NCBI GenBank assembly: GCA_965197905.1
Contig: CBDAOB010000004.1
Span: 1,812,878 to 1,876,877, forward strand
Direction of reading: 5' to 3'
DNA length: 64,000 nt
Source: Candidatus Latescibacterota bacterium
GTDB taxonomy: Bacteria > Latescibacterota > UBA2968 > UBA8231
The notes under the pieces were generated by a model, which saw only the letters and a list, made by a program, of their open reading frames with translations, was not told the origin of the DNA and ran no database searches. Of the stretch, positions 1-28,945 are shown piece by piece; positions within the stretch are counted from its first letter, which is position 1; every line of letters starts with the position of its first letter. A program made the translations under genes and the position numbers.

Positions 1-983
1 CCACCACGCCGGTAGACATGGGTGGGGAAAAGGCCAGCGACAAGGTGACCTCCTACATGCGGGCGGAGATGCGCGCCACCGCCGAACGGACCGGTCGCGA
101 TCCGAAAATCGCCGAAGCGATGGTGGACGAACGGGTGGACATCCCCGGGTTGAGCGCCGAGGCCGGTCGCCCGGCCACCTTGACCACCGAACAGGCGCTG
201 CATTACCAGATTGCCGACGAGACGGCGGAAACCCTGTACGAGGTGTTGCAGATCTACGATCTGGCCGACGCCGAGATCGTCGAGGTCGAGCTAACCTGGG
301 CCGAACATGTGGTCCGCTTGCTGACCCACCCGATTGTTACATCGTTGTTGCTGGCCGTGGCCATGTTCGGCCTGATCGCCGAGGTGCGGACACCCGGTTG
401 GGGCCTGGGAGGCAGCCTGGCCCTCATCGCGCTGACGCTTTTCTTCGGCAGCAATCTCCTGGTACGTCTGGCGGAGTGGTGGGAACTGTTGCTGTTTGGT
501 GTAGGGTTCGGGTTGTTGCTGATCGAGGTGGTAGCCGTACCCGGCTTTGGCGTCGTTGGGGTCTCCGGCATCGCGTTCATGGGTGCCAGCATCGTTTTGA
601 CCCAGCTGCCGGGCGTAGAGTTCGAGTGGTGGAGCGTGGAGGAGGTATCCGATGTCGTGGGCCGCATGGCGCTCTCGATGATCGCTGCCGTGGTTTTGTC
701 GCTCGTATTTCTACGCGCGCTGCCGAAGTTTGCCGCCTTCAATCGCCTCATTCTCAAGAGTGAGACCCGCGCTTCGGAGGGTTACGTCTCGGCTTCCACC
801 GAAGAGGACGAACAGCTCGTCGACCAGGAGGGGATCACCCTGACGGATCTGCGTCCCGTCGGCATCGGCCTGTTCGGCGGCCGGCGGATCAACATTACCG
901 CCGAAGGGGAGTTCATCGAACAGCAGCGCCCCGTAAGGATCGTCGAAGCGCACGGTAGCCGGATCGTGGTGAGGACTCTTTGA
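1..983 (+). CDS. NfeD-family membrane protein, long form, 5'-partial (C-terminal part of ClpP-like domain + TM region + OB-fold)
   Basis: No in-frame stop upstream of the first ATG (18) back to nt 3, so the gene probably runs off the window. Hydrophobic central TM segments and a C-terminal beta-rich region typical of NfeD. First gene of an NfeD-NfeD-FloA operon, 4-nt overlap with the next gene. Confidence 0.55.
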   Translation, partial: TTPVDMGGEKASDKVTSYMRAEMRATAERTGRDPKIAEAMVDERVDIPGLSAEAGRPATLTTEQALHYQIADETAETLYEVLQIYDLADAEIVEVELTWAEHVVRLLTHPIVTSLLLAVAMFGLIAEVRTPGWGLGGSLALIALTLFFGSNLLVRLAEWWELLLFGVGFGLLLIEVVAVPGFGVVGVSGIAFMGASIVLTQLPGVEFEWWSVEEVSDVVGRMALSMIAAVVLSLVFLRALPKFAAFNRLILKSETRASEGYVSASTEEDEQLVDQEGITLTDLRPVGIGLFGGRRINITAEGEFIEQQRPVRIVEAHGSRIVVRTL

Positions 984-1492
984 CTCCCGACGCATGGGCG
1001 CCGCTGATCTATTCGCTGCTTTTGCTGATCCTCGGTTTTGGCTTGATCCTTCTTGAGATCTTCGTTATTCCCGGCATCAATATCTTTGGTATCGTCGGAT
1101 TTCTCACCATGAGTGCCGGCGTGTGGTACGCCTACGCCAAGCTCGGGACCGGATCGGCCGCGGCGGTCGCCGTGCTCGGATTGGGAGGAACCTTCGTTCT
1201 CGTCCGTTTGCTCATACGGGTTCGGGCCTGGCACCGGATCGTGCTTGATACCGATACTGGAAAGAATCGGGGATACGATTCCTCTGCCCCGGGGCTGGAG
1301 GATCTCAACGGCCTGTCGGGAGAAGCGCTGACACCCCTGCGTCCGGCGGGTCGCGCCAAGATTGGGGAGCGTATCATTGACGTGGTAACCGAAGGTGATT
1401 TCGTTTCCACCGGAGAGCCGATCGAGGTGGTCGAGATCGGCGGCAACCGCGTGGTCGTGCAAAAAGCGGCCAACAAAGGAGAACTAGGGTGA
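980..1492 (+). CDS. NfeD-like short membrane protein (YqeZ/YuaF-type, TM hairpin + OB-fold)
   Basis: 170 aa, N-terminal hydrophobic segments, C-terminal '[22 protein letters not shown]' OB-fold-like motif. ATGA/GTGA 4-nt overlaps with both flanking genes, immediately upstream of floA. Confidence 0.5.
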
Positions 1493-2478
1493 CGCAAATC
1501 CTTTTCCTGCTGTTGATACTGTTGGGCATCGTCGTTTTCCTGGCCCTGTTCACCTACTTCGTACCCATCGGGCTCTGGATTACCGCCTTTTTCGCCGGGG
1601 TGCGCGTGAGCATCTTCAAGGATCTCGTCGGTATGCGCCTGCGGAAGGTCCCCCCGGCCGCCATCGTGCGACCCAAGATCAGCATCACCAAGGCGGGTCT
1701 CGACGTGGACCTGGACCGGATGGAGGCGCATTTTCTCGCCGGCGGCAACGTCGAAGCCGTCATTTTCGCCCTCATTTCTGCAGACAAAGCGAATATCCCG
1801 CTGACCTTTGAACGGGCGGCGAGCATTGATCTGGCCGGGCGCGACGTACTGGAGGCGGTGCGTGTCAGCGTCAATCCGAAAGTGATCAACACGCCGCTGA
1901 TCGCCGCTGTGGCTAAAGACGGTATCCAGCTCAAAGCCACCTCCCGGGTCACCGTGCGAGCCAACATCGACCGTCTGGTGGGTGGCGCCGGTGAGGAAAC
2001 GATAATCGCCCGGGTTGGTGAAGGCATCGTAACCACCATCGGTTCGGCAGACACCCACAAGGCGGTGCTGGAGAATCCCGACAGCATCTCCCAGCGGGTG
2101 CTCGACAAGGGACTCGACTCAGGCACGGCTTTTGAGATCCTCTCCATCGACATTGCCGACGTCGACGTGGGCGAGAATATCGGCGCCAAGCTACAAACCG
2201 ATCAGGCCGAAGCGGATCTCAAGATCGCCCAGGCCAAGGCGGAAGAGCGACGCGCCATGGCCCAGGCACGGGAGCAGGAGATGCGCGCGCTAGTGGAGGA
2301 GATGAGCGCCCGCGTGAAAGAGGCGGAAGCCGAGGTCCCGCTCGCCATCGCCGAGTCATTTCGTACCGGCAGCCTGGGCATCATGGATTATTACCGCATG
2401 CGCAACATCCAAGCCGATACCGACATGCGTACATCCATTTCCCAAACCGACCCCGAAGACCAGAACCCAAATCAGTGA
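1489..2478 (+). CDS. floA: Flotillin-like protein FloA (YqfA/UPF0365 family)
   Basis: Near-collinear match to the bacterial FloA family, with conserved '[14 protein letters not shown]', '[11 protein letters not shown]', '[20 protein letters not shown]', '[25 protein letters not shown]', '[15 protein letters not shown]' and the C-terminal '[18 protein letters not shown]' tail. GTG start overlapping the previous stop. Confidence 0.85.
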
Positions 2479-2498
2479 TTAAGTTGCAGACAAACTAG

Positions 2499-2975
2499 AT
2501 GGAACAGCTACTATTTCTGCTTTTTGTGTTATTCAGCGTCGGTTCGGCGCTGCTGGAACGGCGGAAGCGCAAGTTAGCCAGACAGCGCGAAGAGGAGGCC
2601 GCCCAAAGGGGTGAACAGGCCGTAGATTCGGAGGAAGAAGATCAGACTTGGTCCTTCCCGACTACGGATCCATTTGAATTGGAGCCGCCGCCGGGGCGCA
2701 TCTCGACGGAAGAATTGGAGCGCCAGGCTTTGGAGGCCGCGCAGCACACGCAGGAGATGGAAGAGCGGGCGCGGCAATTGGAACGACAGGCTCTGGAGGT
2801 AGCGCCGCGCCGCCGGGTCGAGGAACTGGTCCGAGAGTCGCTGCAGCACAAACAAACACGGCGGGCTCCGGGTCGCTCGAAGGGTTGGACCATCTCGGCC
2901 GCAGAGGCGCGTCGTGGGATCATCTACGCCGAGATTCTCGGCAAACCGAAAGCTATGCGCCGGGAGGGCGACTGA
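2499..2975 (+). CDS. Hypothetical membrane-anchored, charged coiled-coil protein
   Basis: N-terminal hydrophobic helix (LLFLLFVLFSVGSALL) followed by a highly charged E/R/Q-rich region. 20 nt downstream of floA, so probably co-transcribed. No recognisable family. Confidence 0.4.
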   Translation: MEQLLFLLFVLFSVGSALLERRKRKLARQREEEAAQRGEQAVDSEEEDQTWSFPTTDPFELEPPPGRISTEELERQALEAAQHTQEMEERARQLERQALEVAPRRRVEELVRESLQHKQTRRAPGRSKGWTISAAEARRGIIYAEILGKPKAMRREGD

Positions 2976-3076
2976 GTCGGAAGGGACCTGCCCGAGTTGG
3001 GGAAGGCGGTCTAACGAACCGCTGCTTTACAGTGCCGGAGGCCGCCTGTATTTTACCGCTGGTTTTTCGAACCATC

Positions 3077-3163
3077 GCCGAAGTGGCGGAACTGGTAGAC
3101 GCGCTGGATTCAAAATCCAGTGGGGGCAACTCCGTGTGGGTTCGAGTCCCACCTTCGGCACCA
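3077..3163 (+). tRNA. tRNA-Leu (anticodon CAA), with 3' CCA encoded
   Basis: Cloverleaf: acceptor GCCGAAG/CTTCGGC, anticodon stem CTGGA/TCCAG with loop TTCAAAA (anticodon CAA), long variable arm typical of tRNA-Leu, T-arm GGTTCGAGTCC, discriminator A + CCA. Confidence 0.85.
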
Positions 3164-3176
3164 TTGGTAGAAACAG

Positions 3177-3213
3177 AGGACGTGCGCCGAGCAAACACGG
3201 CGTCGTCCTTTTG
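3177..3213 (+). terminator. Rho-independent terminator after tRNA-Leu
   Basis: 11-bp GC-rich stem (AGGACG..CGCCG / CGGCG..CGTCCT) with an 8-nt loop, followed by TTTTG. Confidence 0.5.
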
Positions 3214-3324
3214 TCATTTCAGGATTGGTTGGCGTGGGCGTCGCGCCCCTGCATCCATTTGACGATGAAATCAATGGGATCGACGTGAGCCACCTGCAGG
3301 ATCGGATCTGACAAGGTCAGCACG

Positions 3325-5622
3325 GTGGCATCATGCCTACGACGGCGGGAGGGACCTCTAACGAGGCCAGCGAACTTCCGCGTGTGCGGTCACGAAGAGC
3401 GCTCAAACCGAATCGCCTTGCTCCTGGCGGTCGTCATCTTCTGCGGGACCCCGTGTTGGAGCCAGATGATGACCGGCATCGTAACCGACACGGCAGGCGC
3501 CCCGGTTCGCGGAGCCCGGGTGGTCTTTGAGGAAGTTCCAGGGGGCGATCGATTCCTTTCGATCACCGGAGAGCAGGGCGCCTTCGCGACGAATCTCGCC
3601 TTGTCACCCACCGTGATCGCCACCAACGCGGAAGCCCGTCCATCGTCCGTCGCGCTTTACCAGAATCATCCAAATCCGTTCAATCCCGCCACCGTCATTG
3701 GTTTTTCACTCTCGCACGCGACTGCCACGCAGCTGGCCGTCTACAACATTCTCGGCCAACGGGTAAAAATTCTCGTCGACGACTGGCTGGCGCCGGGATT
3801 CTATGAGGCGACTTGGGACGGGACGAACCAGATTGGCGCAGGAGTGGCGGCCGGTGTCTATCTTTATCGTCTGGCGACGCCAACCTACGAAACATCTCGA
3901 AAAATGCTACTGCTGGATGGCACCGCCGCCGCCACCGGCGGCCGTGTGCAGGCGACAAAGCAGCTGCCGGCAGCGCGACGAGCACAGCAGCGGGTTTTCC
4001 AGGTCAGAGTGACCAGTGCTCGGATCGAACCCCACACAGTGGACCCCTTCGTAGTGGAGGACGATACAGCTCTGGAGATTGAGGTGGAGCGTCGTGGAAG
4101 GCAGCTGGTGGTGGAAGATATGGACGGCGACGGGCAATCAGACCTCCTCACCCTGCTGGATGGGGACGAAGCGCTGGAAACACACGTTCAGGATCTCGAC
4201 CTGAACCATCAATTGGACAGTTTTGTGTTTGTTCGCGAGCAGGTCGCTGCCTCGGGGGCGCTCGTAACCAGCGAGACCCGGATTGCGGAAACAACCGACA
4301 GCGTATGGGTCAGGTCGAGTTTTACGATCGAAGCCACCGGCATGGGACCCTCGGTGCTGAGCTTTCGCCTGCAGCCGAAAGAAAGTGTCCTCAGCAGTCT
4401 GGATCTTGAGGACCCGGAGCGAGTCATCCGAGAGGCGTCCAGTCTCGTACCTAGTATCGTGGCCGCCGACAACGGGTGGTTGCAGCTGCAAATTCCGAAC
4501 GTCTTGGCGCCGGACGCGCACCAGATCGATTACTTCGGCGGGCCGCAGATCACCGTTCTCGAAGCGGATTCCGTGATCCAATGGTCTTTCCGCGACGAGG
4601 CTCGCCGCGATGTGGAGTATGCGGTGGCGGCGTTGGAAGGGACCGCATCAGGTCCAGAACCACCCATTACCTTCCAGATCGAGAGCAGCTTCCCCCTCAG
4701 CCGGGACCATCTCCAGGTGCATGCAGTGTCTCCCGAGGTGGGGGTGGTTGAACTGCAGCCGCTCCTGGAAGTCCAACGCCAACGACGTCTAAACGGAAGG
4801 GCGGTATGGGAGCACATGGTAGCGGTTAACTGGCAGCCCCCCAATAAGGGACTCTACCGTCTGATCCTGCGGATCGAGAAGGAGGGGGTGGTGGTGTCCG
4901 AAAGCCTGATATGGCATCTACAGACCCGACGACCGCCGCTGGAACTGAACCTGATTGGTGGAGCGCGGCACCTGATGGTGCACGTGGCGAGTGGTCCGTT
5001 TACCATGGGCTCCGACCGAGGATTCGCCAACGAGCGACCCCAGCACCGCGTGGAGCTAGAAGGGTTCTATCTCGACCGCACTGAAGTTACGAACAAGCAG
5101 TGGAACGCTTATGCTGCTTTTCTGGGCATTTCACTGAAGCAGGGGCTTGACGACCACCCTGTCGTAGACGTCAGCTGGTCTGAAGCCGCCGAGTACTGTC
5201 GCTGGGCGGGATTGCGATTGCCGACGGAGGCGGAGTGGGAAAAAGGAGCCCGTGGGGTCGAAGCCCGGACCTACCCGTGGGGGGAGTCGATCAGCGGCAG
5301 GCAGGCCAATTATGTTGACAGCGGCGATCCCTTCGACAACAGTACCACGCCCGTGGGACTCTTCCCCGACGGGAGTTCCCCTTCTGGAGCCCTGGACATG
5401 GCAGGGAACGTGTGGGAGTGGGTGGCGGATTGGTTCGACGAAAGGTATTACGCCTCCAGTCCGGCACGCAATCCACCAGGCCCTTCCAGTGGGCCGGGAA
5501 GGGTGCTTCGGGGGGGATCGTGGATAAACCTTCCGCTGAGTTTGCGGACCACCCATCGCGGCGGCCGGGAGCCGATGGATCGCACTGACTTCATCGGATT
5601 TCGCTGCGCCCGCGATGAATAG
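3325..5622 (+). CDS. Secreted protein with internal FlgD-Ig/T9SS-CTD-like beta-sandwich domain and C-terminal FGE-sulfatase (SUMF1/EgtB-type) domain
   Basis: N-terminal hydrophobic signal-like segment (start may be GTG ~3382). 'NHPNPFNPATVIGFSL...AVYNILGQRV...YEATWDGTNQIGAGVAAGVYLYRL' matches the por_Secre_tail/FlgD-Ig fold but lies near the N-terminus. C-terminus has FGE-sulfatase motifs 'RLPTEAEWEKGARG', 'YPWG', 'GNVWEWVADW', 'RVLRGGSW', 'GFRCARD'. Confidence 0.7.
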   Translation: MASCLRRREGPLTRPANFRVCGHEERSNRIALLLAVVIFCGTPCWSQMMTGIVTDTAGAPVRGARVVFEEVPGGDRFLSITGEQGAFATNLALSPTVIATNAEARPSSVALYQNHPNPFNPATVIGFSLSHATATQLAVYNILGQRVKILVDDWLAPGFYEATWDGTNQIGAGVAAGVYLYRLATPTYETSRKMLLLDGTAAATGGRVQATKQLPAARRAQQRVFQVRVTSARIEPHTVDPFVVEDDTALEIEVERRGRQLVVEDMDGDGQSDLLTLLDGDEALETHVQDLDLNHQLDSFVFVREQVAASGALVTSETRIAETTDSVWVRSSFTIEATGMGPSVLSFRLQPKESVLSSLDLEDPERVIREASSLVPSIVAADNGWLQLQIPNVLAPDAHQIDYFGGPQITVLEADSVIQWSFRDEARRDVEYAVAALEGTASGPEPPITFQIESSFPLSRDHLQVHAVSPEVGVVELQPLLEVQRQRRLNGRAVWEHMVAVNWQPPNKGLYRLILRIEKEGVVVSESLIWHLQTRRPPLELNLIGGARHLMVHVASGPFTMGSDRGFANERPQHRVELEGFYLDRTEVTNKQWNAYAAFLGISLKQGLDDHPVVDVSWSEAAEYCRWAGLRLPTEAEWEKGARGVEARTYPWGESISGRQANYVDSGDPFDNSTTPVGLFPDGSSPSGALDMAGNVWEWVADWFDERYYASSPARNPPGPSSGPGRVLRGGSWINLPLSLRTTHRGGREPMDRTDFIGFRCARDE

Positions 5623-5731
5623 GCGCGGCCTTCAACCGCGAAAAATTCCGACCTAAAACTGGCAATCCCTTGAACCGGTTGTGGTTACCCGAATCCCTGA
5701 CACCCACGCCCCATATATCACCAACTTTTTG

Positions 5732-5760
5732 TTGCTATGGGCGTATCAGCGCCGTATCAT
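5732..5760 (+). promoter_or_regulatory. Candidate sigma70-type promoter for the sigma-factor gene (TTGCTA-N17-TATCAT)
   Basis: Sits in an AT-rich 230-nt non-coding leader, spacing 17 nt, about 90 nt upstream of the ATG at 5853. Confidence 0.3.
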
Positions 5761-5852
5761 AACATTGATCTATTCACACCGAGTCGCGACCCATTCCGAC
5801 CGTCAGGGCCGCCGTTTCGGCACGTTCCTCAAAACCAAAGAATAGGGGCTAT

Positions 5853-6704
5853 ATGCAAGATAGCTTGGGTGATAGGGAAAGCACGTTGCGGCTCTATTTC
5901 GACGACATTGCCGATTCCAGACCGCTCTCGCGCGAGCGCGAGGTGGAGTTGTCGGCCCGAATACAGGACGGCGACATGCAGGCTCGGGATGAATTGGTCC
6001 AGGCAAATCTTCGTTTCGTGATAGACGTTGCCAAGAACTACCAGAATCGAGGGTTGCCGCTGGCGGATCTGATCAGTGCTGGAAATGTCGGACTGCTGAC
6101 CGCCGCCGACCGCTTTGACGGCACCAAAGGGTACAAATTCATCTCCTACGCGGTCTGGTGGATCAAACAGTCCATTCTGCAAACGATCGCCGAACATGCG
6201 CGTACCGTGCGACTGCCGATGAACAAGGTGAGCTTGCTCAAAGACATCTCCAAGACCTCTCGCCGCCTTGGTCAGGGCCGCGAAGCCGAACCCCGCATCG
6301 AAGAAATTGCCGCGGAGCTGGAGGTGCCCGCTGAGGAAGTGCTAGAAACCATGTTGAGCGCGCGCGCCGTGCGCTCGCTGGACGAATCCTTCGAAGAGGA
6401 TGATGAGCGCAATCTGTTGAACATCTTGGCCGATACTACCCAAGACAATCCTGACGCGGACGTGTTGTGTGAGTCCGCCAAAGATCAGTTGGAGAGCGTG
6501 CTCAACAGTCTGGATGAACGAGAGCTGCGCATTATCAGGCTCTATTTCGGGTTGGACGGTCACGAAGCTTTGACCCTGGAACAGATCGGCGATCTCATGG
6601 GTGTCACCCGTGAGCGCGTGCGTCAGATCAAGGAACGAGCGCTCAGTCGGCTCCGCCATCCTTCGCGGCATCAGTTCCTGCGCGCGCTTACAGAAGACGT
6701 ATAA
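5853..6704 (+). CDS. RNA polymerase sigma factor, sigma-70 family (group 3-like: FliA/WhiG/SigB class by size)
   Basis: 283 aa; region 1.2/2 'LYFDDI...ANLRFVIDVAKNYQNRGLPLADLISAGNVGLLTAADRFD...YKFISYAVWWIKQSI', region 3, and region 4 HTH 'LTLEQIGDLMGVTRERVRQIKERALSRLR'. Noticeably lower GC than neighbouring genes. Confidence 0.85.
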   Translation: MQDSLGDRESTLRLYFDDIADSRPLSREREVELSARIQDGDMQARDELVQANLRFVIDVAKNYQNRGLPLADLISAGNVGLLTAADRFDGTKGYKFISYAVWWIKQSILQTIAEHARTVRLPMNKVSLLKDISKTSRRLGQGREAEPRIEEIAAELEVPAEEVLETMLSARAVRSLDESFEEDDERNLLNILADTTQDNPDADVLCESAKDQLESVLNSLDERELRIIRLYFGLDGHEALTLEQIGDLMGVTRERVRQIKERALSRLRHPSRHQFLRALTEDV

Positions 6705-6751
6705 TCGAGGACTCGGCTCCGCCACGGACACTTCAATCTGTCTCTATCGAA

Positions 6752-6786
6752 ACGGCACTGCGGTTGCGACCGCGGTGCCGTTTTCC
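6752..6786 (+). terminator. Rho-independent terminator after the sigma-factor gene
   Basis: 13-bp stem ACGGCACTGCGGT / ACCGCGGTGCCGT (one mismatch), loop TGCG, followed by TTTTCC. Confidence 0.6.
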
Positions 6787-6807
6787 TTCTAACCCGCTGA
6801 CAATATC

Positions 6808-7704
6808 ATGGATCAGATTTCGATTCTTCTTTTGCTGGGAATCGTACTATTCCTCGCCTTACTCGCCTATTTCGTGCCGCTGGGGTTGTGGATCAGCGCG
6901 TTCTTCGCCGGGGTGAAGGTGCAGATCTTCAAAGACCTGGTGGGCATGCGACTGCGAAAGGTACCCCCCGTGGCCATTGTGCGTCCGAAAATCAGCGCCA
7001 CCAAAGCCGGGCTGCAGGTCGATCTGGACCGTATGGAAGCCCACTATCTGGCAGGCGGAAATGTCGAAGCGGTAATCCTGGCGTTGATCTCCGCAGATAA
7101 GGCAAATATAGATCTTGCCTTCGAGCGGGCAGCCAGCATCGACCTGGCCGGACGCGATGTGCTGGAAGCGGTCAAGGTCAGCGTCAACCCAAAGGTCATC
7201 AATACCCCGCTCATCACTGCGGTAGCCAAGGACGGTATTCAGGTGAGAGCAACCTGTCGCGTCACCGTGCGTGCCAATATCGATCGCTTGGTGGGAGGCG
7301 CCGGGGAAGAGACGATTATCGCCCGTGTCGGCGAGGGCATCATCACCAGTATCGGATCTTGCAACAGCCACAAACAGGTGCTGGAAAGCCCAGACCTGAT
7401 CTCGAAAACGGTGCTGGCCAAAGGACTGGATTCCGGTTCGGCCTTCGAGATTCTATCCATCGATATAGCGGATGTGGATGTGGGAGAGAATATCGGTGCC
7501 AGTCTGCAGACCGATCAGGCCGAGGCTGACTTAAAAATTGCTCGCGCCAAAGCGGAGGAGCGACGCGCGATGGCCGAGGCGCGTGAGCAGGAGATGACGG
7601 CGTTGGTGGAAGAGATGAGTGCGCGGGTCCGGGAAGCGGAAGCCGAGGTTCCCAAAGCCTTAGCCGAGGCGTTTCGTTCGGGCAACCTGGGCTCCTTGTC
7701 CTGA
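6808..7704 (+). CDS. floA: Flotillin-like protein FloA, second paralog (C-terminally truncated relative to copy 1)
   Basis: ~85% aa identity to the 1489..2478 product over 295 aa, but many synonymous nucleotide differences. Ends ...RSGNLGSLS* and lacks the conserved [10 protein letters not shown]... tail. No NfeD partner genes adjacent. Confidence 0.8.
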
Positions 7705-7734
7705 TCTCGTCGGTCAATCCAGGGTTTCGGGAGA

Positions 7735-9504
7735 TTATTCGCGTACTACAGCCAGGGTGCGCTGATAGGTGCGGCCATTGGCTTCTAGGACGTAATAATA
7801 GACACCGCTGGCGACGGCTTCTCCATCCTGATTGGTTCCGTCCCAGGTGGCCGCAAAAGAACGTGCCGAGCGCTGGCCCTGTTCCAGCACACGAACCAGT
7901 TCCCCCGTTGCTGAAAAGATCGATATCCTGGCGTCGTCGCTGGCTTCGTCCAGTGCGTACGGGATTAAGGTTGTTTCGAGTCCGTGAATTCGGAACGGGT
8001 TTGGTCGATTTTGTTCCAAACGAAATACCTGCGAGTCGGTGCCACCCCCCAGAAGGTTGGGATCGTACTCGGCGGCCACATTGTATTCGAAACCGGCGCC
8101 GGACTGCTCAAGGCTGCTGAGAACGACAACGATCTCGTCAAACTGGTCCCAATCCTGGATCTCGACTCTGTTCGCATCGGCGTCACGAATCTCGACGGCG
8201 TCCCGCGAAATCAACAGCAGTTGTCGTTTCCAGTTTCCCTCTTCCGTATTTAGTTCGAGAGCCACACCCCCGCTTTGCAGCTGCGGGTCCAGCTTCAAGT
8301 AAGCACTTCCCGTGTGATCCACCTGGCCACTGTCGGCCACGGCGACTTTGGACGCGGTTCGCAGGGTTTGCGTCCGCACTTCGCCATACTTTTCGCCTTC
8401 GGAGTAGAACATGCCGGAACGGTGGTTGACCCCGGTGAAGTAATTCCACACGGCGTATTCCCCTATGGCCGCCGCCAACCCGCCGGGAATCCACTGGCGA
8501 ATGGCGCGCTCGAAATTTACCAGGCGAGCGTGATTGCTGACGGCCATCTCGTCCCACACCAACCGAATCAAATCGCGACCAAAACGCTGATCGAGAAAAT
8601 GTGCGAAAAGGGCGCTTCCGTAGATGCGCGTTTCCACGGTGAAGTTTCCACTTCCCAACGCGCGCTCGGGCCGGCGGAGCACACTGGGCACGTACTGCAA
8701 GTAGTCGTCCACTTCGGGGTAGGCCACCTCCTCCATCCAGGTTGCCGACGCCTCCTGCCACCACACTCCGTTTCTCCCGGCGTAGTAGGAGAACTGTACC
8801 CCGTGAAAGAATTCATGTGCCAGGGTGACGTGCAGGGCATCCAATCCGCGGGTCTGAACATATACGGGATCGGTAAAATTGTTGTCGATCTCGAAATAGA
8901 CCGGCGTCGTATTCCCAGAGAGCTCGGGGAAGGCATAGCCGTACACTCCGGAGCCGCTCAAGTCAGTCAGATACACATCGTATTCGTTTCCGCCGCCGAC
9001 GCTGCCGTCTACTAATGGAGCCCGATACCCAAGGTCCACCACCTCAAGTTGCCAGGAGCGTTCCAATGTGGCTGCCGTCTCATCTATATAGTCCGGTATC
9101 GCGTTGTCATCCTCGTCACTGGGATCTACGCCGTGGCGACCCTCCACGTCGTAGTGCAGGCGAAAACGACCGGAGGCGGTCACCAGACTGTTCGCTCTCG
9201 ACGGGCGCTGCAAAGTGCGGGCGAGTTTCGCCCGAAACGAGACACTCAGCTCCGGCGCCGCCTGTTGAGCAGCGACGAGGGCAGGGGTGCCACAACGCGG
9301 GTGCAGGTTCGTCGGGGACGGACGAAACGCCTGCGGCAGGGAATCCGGGTCACGGACAGCGTAGACTTCGTACAGAAGGGCGGTCTCGTAATCCAAAACT
9401 CCGGATTCGAAGGCTTCGCTTACCAGTGTGCCCGCATGGGCGGGGGCACCCAAACTTCCCAGGCAAAAGCTGCAAACAACAAGGGGTCGAAACACGTGCA
9501 CCAA
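7735..9504 (-). CDS. Secreted zinc metalloprotease (HExxH) with C-terminal T9SS-type sorting domain
   Basis: Signal peptide MVHVFRPLVVCSFCLGSLGAPAHA; 'VTLAHEFFHGVQFSYY' HExxH zinc-binding motif. C-terminal ~90 aa 'NRPNPFRIHGLETTL...SIFSATGELVRVL...ATWDGTNQDGEAVASGVYYYVL' matches the por_Secre_tail/FlgD-Ig CTD pattern. Confidence 0.65.
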   Translation of the reverse strand: MVHVFRPLVVCSFCLGSLGAPAHAGTLVSEAFESGVLDYETALLYEVYAVRDPDSLPQAFRPSPTNLHPRCGTPALVAAQQAAPELSVSFRAKLARTLQRPSRANSLVTASGRFRLHYDVEGRHGVDPSDEDDNAIPDYIDETAATLERSWQLEVVDLGYRAPLVDGSVGGGNEYDVYLTDLSGSGVYGYAFPELSGNTTPVYFEIDNNFTDPVYVQTRGLDALHVTLAHEFFHGVQFSYYAGRNGVWWQEASATWMEEVAYPEVDDYLQYVPSVLRRPERALGSGNFTVETRIYGSALFAHFLDQRFGRDLIRLVWDEMAVSNHARLVNFERAIRQWIPGGLAAAIGEYAVWNYFTGVNHRSGMFYSEGEKYGEVRTQTLRTASKVAVADSGQVDHTGSAYLKLDPQLQSGGVALELNTEEGNWKRQLLLISRDAVEIRDADANRVEIQDWDQFDEIVVVLSSLEQSGAGFEYNVAAEYDPNLLGGGTDSQVFRLEQNRPNPFRIHGLETTLIPYALDEASDDARISIFSATGELVRVLEQGQRSARSFAATWDGTNQDGEAVASGVYYYVLEANGRTYQRTLAVVRE

Positions 9505-13990: not shown

Positions 13991-15050
13991 ATGGCGGGTC
14001 GCATCGCCTGCCGCCGGTACCGCTGCGCACGCAACATCGCCTTCGCCGCCTTGAGCCTGCTGTTCGCCGCAGACGGAAACAGCCAGACGCTTCCGCCGGA
14101 GACCCACCCCAGCCTGTTGTTTACCGCCGCTGAGCTACCTCTACTAAAGAGCCGCATCGCGCGCGCTCCGTACTCGAGTTGGTGGCAAACGACGCTGCAA
14201 CGCGCGCAAACCGTTCCCGATACCGTAACCGTAGAGCGATCGAAGGCCCGTTACGCCAAGAGCCTGGCGTTTGCCTATCTCATGACCGACGACGAGAGCT
14301 TCGCACGGTTACGATATGTTGCACGAGTTCGTGAGCGCGGATGCTGCCTCACTGGCCGCGGTGCGCGGTCTCCTCGCCGAGGAAGCGGCGCGGTTGATGA
14401 AGGGTATTGTCGTGCAGGAGATCAACCTCGGTTTCGTGACCATCAAGCTGCGTCTGCACGAGACGCCCCACATCGACAACTGGCATCTGCGGGCGTACGG
14501 TGGGCTGGGGTTTGCCGCCCTGGCACTGGCGGATCATCCCGGCGTCGACGACAAAACCCCCCAAGATTGGTCTGACCGGGCAGTGGATCTGTCCAGCCGC
14601 ACCCTGGAGTATCAGATAGACCCCGTGGACGGCGGCTACGCCGAGGGTCCGTTCTACAGCCGCTACGCCGCCGATGTTTACCTGCCATACTTGATCGCCA
14701 TGAAACGTCTCACCGGACTTGATCTCATCGACGCGCCGATCGTGCGCAAGATGCACGACTGGTCGGTAAACATCCGCTTGCCCAATGGACGCCGACCAAA
14801 CATCGACGACGGCCACCTGGACGAATTCTACGGTCATTACCTGGCCGCTGTCGACGACGACGGTCCGGTGCATCTTTGGGACTGGCAAAACAACGAGACC
14901 GGGCTGTACGTGCGGGAGTTTTCAGAGCTGGATGCTATTGCGCTCTACGACGACCGCATCGAACCCCAGGAGCCCACGCAAGGACCGACGATCTTCATGC
15001 CGGAGGCCGGAGATGCGGTCTTCCGCAACGACTGGTCGGCCGACGGGATC
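13991..15050 (+). CDS. Heparinase II/III-like polysaccharide lyase, exon 1 (signal peptide + N-terminal alpha-toroid part); apparent +1 frameshift near 14286-14316
   Basis: Signal peptide MAGRIACRRYRCARNIAFAALSLLFAADG. Coding potential switches from frame 2 (13991..~14310) to frame 0 (14286..15050) inside an overlap of two track ORFs. Exon ends ...FRNDWSADGI immediately before GTGCG at 15051. Confidence 0.45.
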
Positions 15051-17191
15051 GTGCGCCACGAGGCGCCAGAGAACCGGGTGGGATGCAAGGACCCACCAAC
15101 GGGCTGTCGCAGCAGCCCGTTGAAGCTGGAGGCAGCCTGACCCTGGGAGCGCAGGGGAAGGTGGAAGCAGCCTCGACAACGACAGAGTGGAGTGGCACCT
15201 CCAGACACTCCACGTCTGGCAAGCAAGACGGAATGGTGTAACCCGAAGTGAACCAGTGATGGAACCCCCTTTAGCGGCCCGCCAACCCAAACCTGGTGGA
15301 TAAGGGTTGGTACGCAACGCACGTGGTCGGATATATGACCGACTGCGACTCTGGGGAGGTGTGATACCCACCGAAGCAGAGGCCTTGGAGAATGCCTGCG
15401 GCGTACCCAAGGCGAAGTTGCAGGGGAAAAGCTGGGCACCTCCCCCGTCAAACGGTTCATGGTGAACGTGGGAACCGAGCCGAGTCCGACCGTTATCGGG
15501 GCAGCGCGCTGTCCGCTGTGGGGCTTGGCAAGGGACGGAGCCTCTGTAGTAGTCCGCGAGCGGGAAAGCCGCTTACATGGCGAAGGGAGGCAGCAAGTTG
15601 CGCAGTGGGGTACTGGAAAAACAGGAGGACGCCGGTGAATGCCAGCGCTTCGTGGCCCGAGGCAGAACAAGCCCGTAATCGAGTACTGGAAATCCAGACC
15701 AAACTGCACCGTTGGGCTGTAGAGGATCGAAGCAAGTGCTTCGACGACCTGTTCAACCTGGTGTGTGACCCGGCGTTTTTGAGTGTAGCCTGGCGTCGGG
15801 TGCGCAGCAACAAGGGTGCTCGTTCGGCCGGAGTGGACGGACAAACGGCCTACTCTGTGGAGACGGAACGCGGCGAGGAGGCCTTTCTCGCCGAGGTGCG
15901 GGTTGATCTGAAGACCCGCAGTTTCCGGCCTCTGCCCGTACGCGAGCGGTTGATTCCGAAACCTGGCACAACGAAGAAGCGCCGGCTCGGCATCCCAACC
16001 GCTCGGGACCGAGTGGTCCAAGCCGCACTCAAGCTGGTGCTCGAACCGATCTTCGAAGCGGACTTCAAGCCGTGCTCCTACGGCTTCCGCCCGAATCGGC
16101 GGGCTCAGGACGCCATCGCCGAGATTCATCAATTCTGCTCCCGCTCTTATGAGTGGGTGGTGGAGGGCGATATCCGTGCTTGTTTCGATGAGATTGATCA
16201 CGCAGCCCTCTTGGACCGCGTGCGTCGACGTATCGGTGATAAGCATGTTCTGAGGCTTGTAAAAGCGTTCTGCAAGGCCGGTGTCCTCACGGAACAATCG
16301 GTGTTGCAAGAAAGCACTTCGGGCACTCCGCAAGGCGGTATTCTCTCACCGCTGGTGGCAAATATCGCCTTATCCGTCCTCGACGATTATTTCACTGAGG
16401 TCTGGAGAAAGGTGGGCGCTACCTCCAGTGCGCGACAAGCGCATCGGCGAAAGGGGCTACCGACTTGTCGGCTTGTCCGTTACGCTGACGATTTCGTGCT
16501 GCTGGTGGCGGGCACCGAAGCTGCAGCGTATGACCTGCGCGACCAAGCGGGGGTGACTCTCACCCCCATGGGTCTGCACCTGTCGGAGACGAAGACCGCC
16601 ATCACGCACATCAGCCGTGGCTTCGATTTCCTGGGTTTTCGCATTCAGAAGCGACGGAAACCGGGCCCGGTTGGCGCACGCATCTATACGTGGCCAAGAA
16701 AGGAATCTCTGGCCCGGTTGAAGAGCACGGTGCGCGCAGTCACGAGAACGGGTCGGCAGAGGCCGTTGAAGAGCCTTCTGCGCCAACTCAATCCGGTGTT
16801 GCGGGGGTGGGCCAACTACTTTCAGTACGGGGTGTCGAAGGCCACTTTCAACTACGTGCGGGGCTTCACTTGGCGCCGCGTAGTGCATTGGCTGCGCCGC
16901 AAGCACCCGCGCTTTAATTGGAGGAAGCTGAAACGCCGCTACCTGCCAGGATGGTGGCCCACCGAGGACGGGATTGCTCTTTACAACGTCGGCGAAGTAG
17001 CAGTGACTCGTTACCGCTATCGATCGGCGCGGATCCCTTCTCCCTGGCCTGCGACAACCGGATGAGACTCTGCGGTCACACGGCACCTTGTGGAGAGCCG
17101 GATGCGTGGTAACGCGCACGTCCGGTTCGGAGGGCGGGCCGGAGAAACCCACATCACGCGTGTGGCGCAGGGCGCTCCGGTCCGACCCTAC
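15051..17191 (+). mobile_element. Group II intron (bacterial, En-minus RT type) interrupting the lyase gene
   Basis: 5' end GTGCGCC (consensus GUGYG). Domain IV carries the RT/maturase ORF. Domain V at 17095..17128 is GAGCCGGATGCGTG-GTAA-CGCGCACGTCCGGTTC (AGC triad, GNRA loop, 2-nt bulge). Domain VI at 17131..17190 has bulged A at 17185 and ends ...CCUAC. The 3' boundary is ambiguous between 17191 and 17194 because of a TACTAC repeat; either choice keeps the host frame. Confidence 0.8.
15635..17065 (+). CDS. Group II intron-encoded reverse transcriptase/maturase (no endonuclease domain)
   Basis: RT blocks including 'RLVRYADDFVLLV' (YADD), 'FLGF', and maturase/X domain 'LLRQLNPVLRGWANYFQYG'; ends right after the thumb domain with no HNH. 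AGGAGG RBS at 15623..15628 followed by GTG at 15635; the track ORF extends spuriously upstream to 15392. Confidence 0.8.
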   Translation: MNASASWPEAEQARNRVLEIQTKLHRWAVEDRSKCFDDLFNLVCDPAFLSVAWRRVRSNKGARSAGVDGQTAYSVETERGEEAFLAEVRVDLKTRSFRPLPVRERLIPKPGTTKKRRLGIPTARDRVVQAALKLVLEPIFEADFKPCSYGFRPNRRAQDAIAEIHQFCSRSYEWVVEGDIRACFDEIDHAALLDRVRRRIGDKHVLRLVKAFCKAGVLTEQSVLQESTSGTPQGGILSPLVANIALSVLDDYFTEVWRKVGATSSARQAHRRKGLPTCRLVRYADDFVLLVAGTEAAAYDLRDQAGVTLTPMGLHLSETKTAITHISRGFDFLGFRIQKRRKPGPVGARIYTWPRKESLARLKSTVRAVTRTGRQRPLKSLLRQLNPVLRGWANYFQYGVSKATFNYVRGFTWRRVVHWLRRKHPRFNWRKLKRRYLPGWWPTEDGIALYNVGEVAVTRYRYRSARIPSPWPATTG

Positions 17192-18571
17192 TACATGCTG
17201 CTGCGCGGCGAGCATGGTCTCACCCGCAACCGGGGACTGGCGCACGAGCATGCCGACGAGACCAGCTTCATCATCTACGCTTTTGGAGAGATGCTGGCTG
17301 TGGATGCGGGGTATATCAACTTCACCAACCACCACAAGGTCAATGCTGGTCGCAATCACAACGTCATCCTGGTGGACGGTGAAGGGCCGCCGCTGTTCGT
17401 GGATCCGTTGATCGGCGAGTCCATCGGCGGCGGCAACAACGCGTTTATCGAGGAGTTTTTCAGCACCGAGCACCAGGACTACGCGGAAGTGCGCGCCCAG
17501 TACGGCGGCGTCGACCTGCGGCGGCGGGTGATGTTTCCCGGAAAACAGTATTTCATTCTGGCCGATGAGGTGCGCGATCTCGAGGTCCACCAGTACGAAT
17601 GGCGTCTCCACGGAAACGGGGGTGGAGACACCGGTGCTGACTATTCCCGTGCCGGCCCCTTGGCGCGCTGGGTCCGACCCAAAGCACAACTGGTCGCCTT
17701 CGTCGTCCCCCAGGACGAACTCACGTTGGCCGAAGCCGACACCGTCCATTCCTTCACGTTTAGCCAGGAGAAAACCCATACCTTTCTGCAGGCTCAGACC
17801 ACCGGTAGCAACGTGGAGTTTCTATCCGTATTGGTTCCCGGGGCAAGCGGAATGCCGATGCCCTCCTTCGATGTCGGCAGCGCAACCGGCGCCCAAGCTG
17901 TGCACATTGAAGGGGACGGATTCCGCGATCTGGCGTGGGTCGCCGAGCACGGCGCCGACTCCATTCTGGTCGAAGATCAAAGCGGCAGTGTCCGCACCGA
18001 CGCCCGCTTTGGACAGCTCCGCTACGAAGGCGATCTGTTGCGGTCTTACACGATTCAGGACGCCAGCTTTCTGCGCGTCGGGACGGAGGAGGTCTTCAGT
18101 GCCGCAGATACGGTCGATCTTTCCTTCAACTTCGACGAGGGTGGCCTACGGGGGTTTGTCGCGGCGGCGGACGGTGGGGTCGAGATCCTGATACCCGTGT
18201 CCGCTTCGGCGCTGGATTCGTTGCAATTCGACGGGACGCTGCTTGACAGTAGTCTCGCCGCGGGGCGACTGAGCCTGAGGATTGCCGGTGCAGGCCGTCT
18301 TGTGGTGCGTACCCAACCAACACCAGCGGACACCGTCGGAGGAGAGTCAAGCGGTCAGACGGCGGCAGCGGAGGAGGCGGGCTCTGCTGCCGAACCGGGG
18401 GATTTCGACCACAGCGGTCTGGTCGACCTGGAGGACTTCAGCTTGTGCGCCCAGGCATACGACTCCAACGCAACGACAGCGACGGCGACTTTCGATCTGA
18501 ACGACGACGGCAGGATAGATTTCGAGGATTTCTTCCTCTTTGCGGATCTCTTCCCGCAGTCCGCTCCGTAA
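17192..18571 (+). CDS. Heparinase II/III-like lyase, exon 2 (Hepar_II_III beta-sandwich domain + C-terminal dockerin-like repeats)
   Basis: 'HEHADETSFIIYAFGEMLAVDAGY' His/Asp signature of the Hepar_II_III domain. C-terminal 'DFDHSGLVDLEDF...FDLNDDGRIDFEDFFLFADLF' looks like two Ca-binding dockerin-type repeats. Frame is continuous with exon 1 once the intron is removed. Confidence 0.55.
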   Translation, partial: YMLLRGEHGLTRNRGLAHEHADETSFIIYAFGEMLAVDAGYINFTNHHKVNAGRNHNVILVDGEGPPLFVDPLIGESIGGGNNAFIEEFFSTEHQDYAEVRAQYGGVDLRRRVMFPGKQYFILADEVRDLEVHQYEWRLHGNGGGDTGADYSRAGPLARWVRPKAQLVAFVVPQDELTLAEADTVHSFTFSQEKTHTFLQAQTTGSNVEFLSVLVPGASGMPMPSFDVGSATGAQAVHIEGDGFRDLAWVAEHGADSILVEDQSGSVRTDARFGQLRYEGDLLRSYTIQDASFLRVGTEEVFSAADTVDLSFNFDEGGLRGFVAAADGGVEILIPVSASALDSLQFDGTLLDSSLAAGRLSLRIAGAGRLVVRTQPTPADTVGGESSGQTAAAEEAGSAAEPGDFDHSGLVDLEDFSLCAQAYDSNATTATATFDLNDDGRIDFEDFFLFADLFPQSAP

Positions 18572-18596
18572 CAACAGCTTCCCGGCGGAGTGACTG

Positions 18597-19049
18597 CTAC
18601 ACCGCGGTCATCGCGTAGTTCAGAATCTCCACCACCTGCGCTGGCTCGGAAGCTACCGCCTGTGCGGCGGCGTCGACCTCCTTTAGCGGGTGCCGAAGGT
18701 CAGGCGGATGCAGCACAATCAGCGGCTTGTTCAGGGCGAAGGCGTATCCGGCATCGAAAGCGGCATTCCACTGCCGGTACTCTTCGCCAAATTTCACCAC
18801 CACAACATCGCAATCGCGTATAAGCGTGCGCGTGCGAATGGCGTTGATCTTGCCCCCTTTGTGATCGGTCCAGAACGAATCCTCTTCGGGGCCGAGAATG
18901 TCGACACCGCAACCATCGCTGGCGCCATGGTCCATCACCGGCGCGAAGAACAGCACGTCGAGCTCTGCCTCCTCGGCGCCCTGAGTAATTTGCTGGCGCC
19001 AATCGCTGTGCACTTCGCCGGCCAGATAAACCTTCCATTGCTTTGACAT
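18597..19049 (-). CDS. YtoQ-family protein (nucleoside 2-deoxyribosyltransferase-like fold)
   Basis: 150 aa; 'KVYLAGEVHSDWRQQI', 'FFAPV.DHGASD', 'NAIRTRTLIRDCDVVVVKFGEEYRQWNAAFDAGYAFALNKPLIVLHPP' is collinear with the Bacillus YtoQ family. Confidence 0.7.
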   Translation of the reverse strand: MSKQWKVYLAGEVHSDWRQQITQGAEEAELDVLFFAPVMDHGASDGCGVDILGPEEDSFWTDHKGGKINAIRTRTLIRDCDVVVVKFGEEYRQWNAAFDAGYAFALNKPLIVLHPPDLRHPLKEVDAAAQAVASEPAQVVEILNYAMTAV

Positions 19050-27518: not shown

Positions 27519-27532
27519 GGGAGTTCGAACAT

Positions 27533-27560
27533 TGACACTCGCGCCCCAGCGGCCTATCAT
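27533..27560 (+). promoter_or_regulatory. Candidate sigma70 promoter for gltA (TTGACA-N16-TATCAT)
   Basis: Consensus -35 hexamer, 16-nt spacer and a near-consensus -10, located ~95 nt upstream of the citrate synthase ATG, which has a GAGGAG RBS. Confidence 0.4.
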
Positions 27561-27655: not shown

Positions 27656-28945
27656 ATGACCGAAAAAGCCCAACTCAAGCTCAACGGTACCGAGCTGGAA
27701 CTTCCGGTAATAGTGGGAACCGAGGATGAACATGCTCTCGACATCAAGAGTCTCAGAGCGGAGACCGGGCACATCACCCTGGACAGCGGTTTTGGCAACA
27801 CCGGCTCGTGCCAAAGTGCCATAACCTTCATCGACGGCGAGAAGGGTATCCTGCGCTATCGTGGTATTCCCATCGAAGAGCTCGCCCAACACAGCACCTT
27901 CATCGAAAGCTCTTATTTGCTCATTTGGGGCGAGTTGCCCACGGCCGAACAGCTGGACACGTTTAGCGACCTTCTCACCAAGCACCAGATGCTGCGAGAA
28001 GAGATCCGACACCACTTCGACCTCTTTCCCGCCAACTCTCCGCCGATGGCGGTGCTGTCGGCGGTACTCAATGCCTTGAGCTGTTTTTATCCGGAGCTGG
28101 TCGAGATCGAGGACGACAACGGTTTTATCGAGGTCGCCGCCCGCATCATTGCCAAGATTCGCACCATTGCCGCCTACTCCTACCGCCACGAGATGGGTTA
28201 CCAGATCAACTATCCACACCCGGATAAAACCTTCTCCGAAAACTTTCTGCACATGATGTTCAGCGATCCGTACGTCGAGTTCGATGCGCAGCCGGAGCTG
28301 GTGCGGGCACTGGATCTGATCTTTCTACTCCATGCGGATCACGAGCAGAACTGCAGCACCTCTACGGTGCGTATGGTCGGCAGCTCCGAAGCCAACCTGT
28401 TCGCCTCGGTGGCCGCAGGAGTGTGTGCCCTCTGGGGGCCCTTGCACGGAGGCGCGAATGTTGCCGTAGTGGATATGCTGGAGCATATGCACGCGGAGAA
28501 TATCTCGGTCAAAGACTTGGTACAGCAGGTTAAAGACAAGACAGAGGGCCTGCGCTTGATGGGATTCGGTCATCGGGTGTATAAGAATTTCGACCCGCGG
28601 GCGAAGATCATTAAGCAGTCCGCAGTGGAGGTCCTGGCTAAACTGCATATCAAGGATCCGCTGCTGGACCTGGCCGAGGAGCTGGAAGAGGCCGCGTTGA
28701 ACGACGATTACTTCATCGAGCGCAAACTGTATCCGAACGTCGATTTCTACAGCGGCATCATCCTGCGCGCCTTGGGCATCCCCAAGAAAATGTACACCGT
28801 CATTTTCGCCATTGGGCGTATGCCCGGTTGGATAGCCCACTGGCGGGAGATGCGCTTCATCACCAAGGACCGTATCAGCCGGCCGCGGCAGGTCTATACT
28901 GGGTATCCCCAGCGCCCGTACATCCCCCTGGTGAATCGGCGCTGA
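27656..28945 (+). CDS. gltA: Citrate synthase (type II, GltA)
   Basis: 429 aa; 'LRYRGIPIEEL', 'LLHADHEQNCSTSTVR', 'GPLHGGAN', 'GFGHRVYKNFDPRA', 'DFYSGII' are canonical citrate synthase motifs. Confidence 0.9.
   Translation: MTEKAQLKLNGTELELPVIVGTEDEHALDIKSLRAETGHITLDSGFGNTGSCQSAITFIDGEKGILRYRGIPIEELAQHSTFIESSYLLIWGELPTAEQLDTFSDLLTKHQMLREEIRHHFDLFPANSPPMAVLSAVLNALSCFYPELVEIEDDNGFIEVAARIIAKIRTIAAYSYRHEMGYQINYPHPDKTFSENFLHMMFSDPYVEFDAQPELVRALDLIFLLHADHEQNCSTSTVRMVGSSEANLFASVAAGVCALWGPLHGGANVAVVDMLEHMHAENISVKDLVQQVKDKTEGLRLMGFGHRVYKNFDPRAKIIKQSAVEVLAKLHIKDPLLDLAEELEEAALNDDYFIERKLYPNVDFYSGIILRALGIPKKMYTVIFAIGRMPGWIAHWREMRFITKDRISRPRQVYTGYPQRPYIPLVNRR

Follow-up and report, generated by a model that had tools for sequence, protein, structure and literature searches.

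A predicted short FloA paralog, conserved in its lineage, next to an RpoD-like sigma factor gene in Latescibacterota

Described FloA systems and the two loci of the window

FloA/YqfA (UPF0365, PF12127, NF010186) is the "SPFH5" group, which is associated with ClpP-type NfeD (PMC2636767), and the closest described arrangements are the yqeZ-floA-yqfB operon of B. subtilis and the FloA-NfeD pair of S. aureus. We analyzed a 64-kb stretch of a Candidatus Latescibacterota genome (contig CBDAOB010000004.1; hereafter the window), which carries two floA genes, floA1 and floA2, in direct orientation, ~4.3–5 kb apart and in different transcription units. floA1 is an ordinary operon member: it is full length, has an overlapping NfeD gene upstream and a gene for a small membrane protein downstream, although two NfeD genes (long and short) precede it where the Bacillus operon has a single yqeZ. 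floA2 resembles the family in its anchor, SPFH domain and coiled coil, is 86% identical to floA1 and passes both family models, but it lacks the last 23 Pfam (31 NCBIfam) positions, has no NfeD neighbor and follows an RpoD-like sigma factor gene. We found no published description of a tail-less FloA class, of a pairing of FloA with an RpoD-like sigma factor, or of conversion between FloA copies.

Other SPFH systems offer partial parallels. HflK/HflC, prohibitin-1/2, flotillin-1/2 and erlin-1/2 are likewise pairs of paralogs within one genome that differ mainly at the C-terminus; erlin-1 and erlin-2 share 74% identity and diverge most in their C-terminal regions (PMC12624060). In HflK/C-like pairs, however, both partners keep the second coiled coil (CC2) and the C-terminal region, and floA2 has neither; hflK and hflC are also adjacent, whereas floA1 and floA2 lie apart in separate transcription units. 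An earlier survey noted SPFH1 and SPFH2 genes that have no NfeD neighbor and explained them as duplicates whose own NfeD was lost and for which a distantly encoded NfeD may stand in (Hinderhofer et al. 2009, PMC2636767), but FloA (SPFH5), C-terminal shortening, a sigma neighbor and gene conversion are not described there. In Pyrococcus horikoshii, PH1510 is a ClpP-like Ser-Lys long NfeD in an operon with its SPFH partner PH1511, and the dyad is conserved here; the partner there is p-stomatin and here FloA, and the short form here is gene-encoded, not proteolytic. Finally, floA of B. subtilis is under the alternative sigma factor sigma-W (PMC8144471). The action of sigma-W on floA and floT of that species is a comparable sigma-flotillin expression link, but sigma-W is an extracytoplasmic function (ECF) factor acting at a distance on a defined promoter, whereas the window has an RpoD/SigA-like factor that is linked to floA2 solely by adjacency of the genes.

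The features that bear on the two floA genes are as follows.

18–983, + strand: long NfeD gene, NfeD1b type (Pfam NfeD1b_N, profile 102–188/189 only, NfeD_membrane and NfeD)
980–1492, + strand: short NfeD gene, membrane domain plus OB-fold partner-binding domain (Pfam NfeD and NfeD_membrane)
1489–2478, + strand: floA1, full-length FloA, 329 aa (PF12127 3–313/314, 528 bits; NF010186, 536 bits)
2380–2475, + strand: the portion of floA1 absent from floA2 (alignment of both copies)
5732–5760, + strand: promoter-like element TTGCTA-N17-TATCAT (consensus scan)
5853–6704, + strand: short RpoD/SigA-like sigma-70 factor gene, 283 aa (Pfam; regions 1.2, 2, 3 and 4; no region 1.1)
6749–6790, + strand: intrinsic-terminator-like hairpin between the sigma gene and floA2 (RNA fold)
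6808–7704, + strand: floA2, short FloA, 298 aa (PF12127 2–291/314, 477 bits; NF010186, 483 bits)

The list of open reading frames (ORFs) bears out what a first-pass annotation of this DNA had reported, namely, floA copies at 1489–2478 (329 aa) and 6808–7704 (298 aa), the first of them in an NfeD(long)-NfeD(short)-FloA operon. The short NfeD gene overlaps both of its neighbors by 4 nt (980–983 and 1489–1492), and it is placed alike in two relatives used throughout: L168, which like L169 has a 97%-identical floA2 ortholog with the gene order retained (the two contigs, of 0.2 Mb and 6.7 Mb, derive from other samples), and the more distant L002. The 5' part of the long NfeD gene runs off the window edge; its orthologs measure 451–454 aa. 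floA1 consists of an N-terminal hydrophobic membrane anchor, an SPFH/PHB domain, a long Glu/Ala-rich coiled coil, a hinge, a short helix and an acidic tail.

A conserved short subtype and its descent

The two proteins align without gaps over residues 17–295 and are 86% identical (BLASTP, 279 aa), and the codon-aligned DNA is 72.9% identical, near the ~85% and ~75% of the first-pass annotation. Third codon positions are 43.6% identical. By the Nei-Gojobori method, the proportion of differing synonymous sites (pS) is 0.735, which is saturated, the nonsynonymous proportion (pN) is 0.112, and the ratio of the corresponding substitution rates (dN/dS) is ~0.04. The pS is even along the gene (0.65–0.9). 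The proteins differ most in the membrane anchor and in SPFH domain residues 161–220. Both copies pass the FloA family models, for which the cut-offs are 34 bits (Pfam) and 393 bits (NCBIfam NF010186).

As annotated, floA2 ends in ...GNLGSLS* without the conserved tail, and its alignment to the family profiles stops at 291/314 (PF12127) and 297/328 (NF010186). The GNLG hinge lies at nt 7681–7692 and is followed by three residues (SLS) and the stop. By profile, floA2 is a FloA member but a shortened subtype, from which the conserved C-terminal segment and the low-complexity tail are absent; in floA1, these are residues 298–314 (nt 2380–2430) and the acidic residues 315–329, respectively. The MDYY...DTxMR tail is not encoded in any frame downstream of the floA2 stop, and we therefore rejected a frameshift or read-through route to a long floA2. 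A tail remnant suggested by a tblastn match that extends six codons past the stop was rejected as chance, as the resemblance spans 3–4 residues and is unconserved in L168.

Is the short end a one-off truncation, as the first-pass annotation had presented it? Among the 120 nearest FloA database clusters at 90% identity, 55 are short (mostly 298–302 aa) and 65 are long (325–334 aa), so that the short form is a conserved subtype of the lineage. In every short cluster, the stop falls 2–5 residues after GNLG, with 20 different endings (e.g., SLS, IQAPA, FLGRN, VMTRS, TMSR, RI, QL and LMVH), and a length of exactly 298 aa is kept in 13 clusters. All 65 long clusters carry a near-invariant 17-residue segment, [IV]...[AS]DTxMR. 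Long and short floA genes share contigs of 2.15 Mb, 5.3 Mb, 1.2 Mb and 119 kb, and one 6.7-Mb genome encodes one long and two short forms. Because the short end is a conserved natural subtype, floA2 is a real variant and not a damaged gene. Some metagenomic FloA sequences combine "long" N-termini with "short" C-termini and are possibly assembly chimeras.

We also sampled 160 outgroup loci from species-representative genomes and Joint Genome Institute (JGI) metagenomes, all at ≤83% identity. Only one of these, from Gemmatimonadales (L043, 310 aa), is clearly short, ending at profile position 290/314, and one more variant of 307 aa is possibly short. Short forms are thus rare beyond this lineage, at ~1 in 100 loci. 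The closest FloA proteins in the scan of GTDB species representatives (83% identity) belong to an uncultured marine metagenome-assembled genome (MAG) and to a Latescibacterota MAG, and the close relatives are labeled Latescibacterota or Gemmatimonadetes in the databases. A short C-terminus is thus a common natural variant, a possibility that the annotation had held against its own interpretation, but only within this uncultured bacterial group.

Orthologs in L168 gave a direct estimate of selection. The dN/dS is 0.031 for floA2 (dS 0.47, dN 0.014) and likewise 0.031 for floA1 (dS 0.78, dN 0.024), and it is 0.014 for the sigma gene (dS 0.32, dN 0.005). Furthermore, the exact floA2 protein was found beside its sigma neighbor in another assembly (L001). 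The low dN/dS and the synteny in independent assemblies uphold the annotation's view that floA2 is an old paralog under purifying selection and not an assembly duplicate. Judged from these sequence comparisons, floA2 is a functional, lineage-conserved short FloA paralog, under purifying selection equal to that on floA1.

The same layout occurs in more distant relatives. In L002/L003, on a 5.3-Mb contig, amino acid identity to the window proteins is 84% for the sigma factor, 79% for the long NfeD, 66% for the short NfeD and 49% for p158, the small protein encoded after floA1. The order in L002 is NfeD1b-NfeD-floA(328 aa)-p160, two FlgD_ig genes, and sigma(283 aa)-floA(301 aa). The layout NfeD-NfeD-floA(long)-p158 ... 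sigma-floA(short) is therefore common to distant relatives, and because L002 has the same gene order, the duplication predates the split of these lineages. floA2 probably originated as a partial duplication of the neighboring NfeD-linked floA.

The L002 copies have diverged far less from each other. Their DNA is 92.7% identical (97–99% in the central 600 nt) with a pS of 0.19; the similarity begins near codon 7 and breaks off sharply just past the hinge codons GGC ATC. In a neighbor-joining tree, a lineage's short and long forms group with each other, and no separate short and long clades are formed. The simplest reading of these patterns would be recurrent gene conversion between the copies, with the short 3' end kept by selection, since the homology breaks exactly at the hinge despite the homogenization. 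Recent conversion in the window pair itself was rejected, as its pS is uniformly 0.65–0.9, unlike that of L002; by this measure, the window genus appears to have escaped conversion long enough for synonymous saturation. The old divergence claimed by the first-pass annotation consequently stands here, where synonymous sites are saturated, but not in L002, where gene conversion has homogenized the copies.

A genomic island at the tRNA-Leu gene was rejected as the source of floA2, as the same order without mobile genes is present in L168 and L002. L001, the strain with the identical floA2, carries a mobile element at 1–6200, upstream of its FGE-sulfatase gene, with a tyrosine integrase, AlpA-like and VapE/primase-like genes and an HsdM fragment. 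At the counterpart in the window (~3160–3325), only tRNA-Leu(CAA) lies upstream of the FGE-sulfatase gene, and the L001 element probably represents an island of that strain that inserted at the tRNA.

The missing end, the sigma neighbor and expression signals

SPFH proteins follow the order SPFH1-SPFH2-first coiled coil (CC1)-CC2-C-terminal domain (CT); the cage is capped by the C-terminal domains, CC2 mutations harm erlin and prohibitin assembly the most, and in heteromeric pairs both C-termini occupy alternating positions (PMC12624060). We modeled floA1 with AlphaFold2 as a monomer from a shallow alignment of 42 sequences. The model begins with an N-terminal helix, which is followed by helical and beta elements of the SPFH/PHB domain, one long helix (231–293), a break at 294–299 (GSLGIM), a short helix (300–314) and a disordered acidic end (315–329). 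A Foldseek search of the PDB returned SPFH cage proteins only, i.e., PHB1/2, HflK/C, stomatin, erlin1/2, flotillin1/2, QmcA-YbbJ and the vault shoulder. floA2 keeps the membrane anchor, the SPFH/PHB domain and the whole long coiled coil and is without the post-hinge segment and the acidic tail. On this model, floA2 would therefore correspond to FloA up to the end of CC1.

The kept coiled coil also bears on NfeD. In S. aureus, the OB-like domain of NfeD binds the start of the FloA coiled coil (PMC11222466). The first-pass annotation was right that no NfeD gene lies beside floA2, but this need not leave floA2 without a partner, as the coiled coil that contains this binding region is whole; floA2 may therefore use the NfeD proteins encoded 5 kb upstream. 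Of these, the long NfeD is related to a protease: the full-length L168 ortholog aligns to PH1510-N (2deo_A) with E = 3e-9 and conserves the catalytic Ser and Lys, the positions mutated in the inactive PDB variants S97A and K138A. The Ser-Lys dyad of PH1510 is defined in PMC3795559. Only the Lys is visible in the window (KASDKVTSYM), the gene start being beyond its edge, and the SDH_protease Pfam match is below the cut-off (27.5 vs 31.3 bits).

A sigma-70-family gene with regions 1.2, 2, 3 and 4 does lie directly upstream of floA2 (5853–6704), as annotated. Its best NCBIfam matches are RpoD and RpoS, all below the cut-off (TIGR02393, 231 vs 354 bits), and its relatives of 281–291 aa are labeled "RpoD/SigA" or "primary sigma factor" in databases. 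Such short RpoD/SigA-like factors (~282 aa, no region 1.1) occur as at least 3–4 paralogs per genome in the window genus; those on the 6.7-Mb contig are 99%, 88% and 86% identical to the window protein, with one more at 68%. The window factor is thus a short RpoD/SigA-like paralog and not an ECF (group 4) factor, and the membrane protein encoded after it has no anti-sigma domain. A primary RpoD would be expected to score above the equivalog cut-off and to be present in a single copy; any one of the paralogs may be the housekeeping factor.

Pairs of this sigma gene with a short floA were found in three settings, with gaps of 103 nt in the window genus, 10 nt in L002 and 60 nt in L084, a second, diverged pair of the 6.7-Mb genome (sigma 68% and FloA 85% identical). 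NfeD lies directly upstream of 47 of the 64 long FloA loci, and this sigma gene upstream of none. For the 13 short loci, which are not independent and represent ~8 distinct contexts, the counts are 1 for NfeD and 7 for the sigma gene. These data are of a conserved sigma-floA2 adjacency, not of control of floA2 by the sigma factor.

Full-length FliG genes (strong FliG_N, M and C matches) recur beside the sigma paralogs and short FloA in relatives, and none lies within the window. In L084 (regions 1679–3643 and 6698–8940, with a sigma paralog at 8095–8940), one FliG gene precedes a sigma gene and a fragmented one is divergent from the sigma-floA(short) pair; FliG precedes floA(short) in L172 (2–823) and follows it in L171 (7044–7706).

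How might floA2 be expressed? The promoter-like element TTGCTA-N17-TATCAT ends ~93 nt upstream of the sigma start codon and is an island of conservation in the otherwise diverged upstream DNA of L168 and L002 (TTGATA-N17-TATCAT). A similar site, TTGACA-N17-TATCAT, with one mismatch to the search pattern, is found at 27532–27560, ~96 nt upstream of the citrate synthase gene (27656–28945), and would fit a housekeeping-type promoter consensus of the organism. A sigma regulon defined by this motif was rejected: there is one further near-match (27532), two matches also arose in 2 of 100 shuffles, and this gives no evidence of a regulon.

Between the sigma gene and floA2, the hairpin at 6749–6784 has 16 pairs and a GC-rich core (−39.9 kcal/mol and z = −3.9 for a 116-nt stretch) and is followed to 6790 by the tail UUUU-CC-UU (UUUUCCUU); a simple terminator scan did not list it. 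The spacer has no Rfam match at E ≤ 1. L001 and L168 share the hairpin, with a single G-C to G-U change, whereas L002 and L084 lack it. The annotation's description of the sigma gene as "terminator-insulated" therefore holds in that a strong hairpin is present in this genus, but not beyond it, as the spacers of L002 (10 nt) and L084 (60 nt) contain none. In the ~23 nt from the U tract to the floA2 ATG, no Shine-Dalgarno or promoter-like sequence is visible. Since there is no room for a promoter of its own, co-transcription by read-through is likelier than insulation, and floA2 would be expressed by partial read-through from the sigma promoter. The hairpin is at best a genus-specific tuning device.

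The remaining features of the locus are listed below; the window holds no NfeD gene beyond the floA1 pair, no further FloA gene and no second such sigma gene.

2499–2975, + strand: p158, 158 aa, no family match (ORF; position kept in relatives)
3077–3163, + strand: tRNA-Leu(CAA), between both floA loci (ARAGORN; Rfam tRNA, 62 bits)
3325–5622, + strand: FGE-sulfatase/FlgD_ig protein gene, between the floA1 operon and the sigma-floA2 pair (Pfam)
7735–9504, − strand: convergent gene for a secreted protein with a C-terminal domain of the type IX secretion system (T9SS) type (Pfam FlgD_ig, CHU_C and DUF6055)

p158 has one N-terminal hydrophobic helix followed by a highly charged, coiled-coil-like region rich in Glu, Arg and Gln, and it has no Pfam or NCBIfam match. 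It directly follows the long floA in L168 (158 aa) and L002 (160 aa, 49% identity), its dN/dS is 0.2, and it may be an unrecognized fourth member of the NfeD-NfeD-FloA operon. It sits where yqfB sits in the Bacillus operon, a likeness by position alone.

A FlgD_ig-matching gene occupies the place of the FGE-sulfatase gene in both L168 and L002. Within the window, 3325–5622 (+) and 19617–21980 (−) are paralogs whose N-terminal ends carry CarboxypepD_reg and FlgD_ig domains and whose C-terminal ends carry FGE-sulfatase domains (one in the former, two in tandem in the latter). Alongside several T9SS-domain secreted proteins, they suggest that FGE-like enzymes form a family here that is secreted or located at the surface. 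The stop of the convergent gene lies 30 nt from that of floA2 and bounds the locus, and this neighbor is common to L001 and L168. Farther along, a group II intron (15392–17191), comprising an ORF at 15392–17065 with RVT_1 and GIIM maturase domains and an Rfam Intron_gpII match (domain V/VI) at 17093–17191, appears to split a heparinase II/III-like gene (context ~14300–18571). In L168, this gene is an intact 869-aa ORF (16139–18748), and in the window a 493-aa C-terminal ORF (17090–18571) follows the intron.

Weighing the explanations

The reading that we prefer, with a probability of roughly 55%, is that floA2 is a functional, lineage-conserved short FloA that serves as a cap-less subunit and is read through from the sigma promoter. 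By analogy with the solved SPFH complexes, floA2 would most likely contribute cap-less subunits, whether by joining floA1 in mixed rings or by building open rings alone, and would thereby change the size of the scaffold, its closure or the access of clients; the upstream NfeD proteins may still serve it. Transcription would most likely start at the conserved promoter that precedes the RpoD-like sigma gene, and in the window genus partial read-through of the terminator would yield less floA2 than sigma transcript. We infer co-transcription and read-through as well as co-assembly with floA1.

Several observations weigh against this reading. The AlphaFold2 model is of moderate quality (mean pLDDT, the predicted local distance difference test score, of 68, and ~50 at helix 300–314) and is of a monomer only. 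A PDB sequence search with floA1 gave no match at E ≤ 0.01 and no FloA cage is solved, so there is no solved FloA onto which the tail can be mapped; S. aureus FloA, composed of transmembrane region, PHB domain, coiled coil and low-complexity region, forms clamp-shaped dimers and not cages in cryo-electron microscopy (PMC11222466). The hairpin is strong, terminator-like and conserved in the genus and could insulate floA2 fully, and a floA2 promoter may lie within the 3'-terminal part of the sigma gene. Short forms are also found in other settings, namely, after a thiamine pyrophosphate (TPP) enzyme gene in two lineages (L086 and L170), among transposases (L087) and after FliG (L172), so the sigma link is not universal. 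In L171, a short form lies inside an NfeD operon, on a possibly chimeric contig of a 5x short-read assembly. Finally, the short forms may have arisen by repeated independent truncation at a permissive hinge instead of by one origin followed by conversion.

Alternatively, along the lines of the first-pass annotation, floA2 could form a homo-oligomeric microdomain scaffold of its own, independent of floA1 and NfeD and controlled by the adjacent sigma factor. The adjacency recurs in three lineages or paralogs, 12 of 13 short loci have no NfeD beside them as against 47 of 64 long forms with NfeD directly upstream, the copies differ most in the anchor and in SPFH residues 161–220, and floA of B. 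subtilis is under sigma-W (PMC8144471). This explanation is possible but falls well short of probable: the factor is RpoD/SigA-like rather than ECF and has its own housekeeping-type promoter, a gene that follows a sigma gene shares its expression without thereby being its target, and no candidate floA2 promoter was found. The NfeD-binding coiled coil is moreover kept, and the loss of the ring-closing region argues against a normal closed homo-oligomer.

A stricter form of co-assembly, which we regard as doubtful, would make the short FloA an obligate partner that alternates with full-length FloA in one ring, so that the cage has half the usual number of cap elements or is open at the top. Co-transcription with the sigma gene would set the dosage of the short FloA, and, given the FliG genes and further sigma paralogs beside short floA genes in relatives, the module may couple scaffold architecture to a sigma switch. 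If true, this would be the first bacterial FloA heteromer.

Could floA2 instead be a gene-encoded mimic of a FloA clipped by the Ser-Lys protease of the long NfeD, as PH1510 trims the stomatin PH1511? The trimmed state would then be supplied constitutively and without NfeD. The alignment of the long NfeD ortholog to PH1510-N (E = 3e-9), with equivalents of S97 and K138 conserved, is consistent with this, as is the lack of an NfeD neighbor at short forms. Against this, we found no report of FloA cleavage by NfeD, the S. aureus data being of binding (PMC11222466), the FloA hinge (GNLG/IMDYY) is unlike the PH1511 site (VIVL/MLPM), and the protease domain match is sub-threshold (27.5 vs 31.3 bits). 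We consider such mimicry improbable.

In sigma and anti-sigma pairs, the gene for a membrane protein classically follows the sigma gene immediately. floA2 might accordingly tether or regulate the adjacent RpoD-like factor by anti-sigma-like sequestration, which would account for the retention of the pair and for its duplication as a whole; only 10 nt separate the two genes in L002, and the same 6.7-Mb genome also encodes another, diverged sigma (68%) paired with a short FloA (85%). We think this quite unlikely, as Pfam finds the FloA domain only in floA2 and no anti-sigma domain, the short FloA is almost identical to an ordinary FloA core, and several short forms have no sigma neighbor. To our knowledge, no SPFH protein binds a sigma factor.

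That floA2 is decaying as a pseudogene, or is an artifact of assembly or duplication, is scarcely credible, for although it is shorter than the family models and a weak in-frame resemblance follows its stop (SRR-SIQ vs YRMRNIQ), that resemblance spans 3–4 residues and is unconserved in L168, the ortholog dN/dS is 0.03, the length is kept exactly in 13 clusters, the synonymous divergence from floA1 is saturated and the locus recurs in independent assemblies, including contigs of 2–6.7 Mb, and these data on selection and conservation therefore exclude such readings.

The practical stakes are modest, as the organisms are uncultured and no phenotype is attached to the genes. The label "FloA" given by automatic annotation conceals two length classes in these lineages of the Fibrobacteres-Chlorobi-Bacteroidetes (FCB) group, a loose placement with which the T9SS-type domains also agree. 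How material enters and leaves SPFH cages that are closed by C-terminal regions is an open question (PMC12478178, PMC12624060). With a selected FloA that is kept up to the hinge but would lack the cap-forming end, and that remains able to exchange sequence with the full-length copy nearby, the short subtype provides a natural experiment on the role of the C-terminus.

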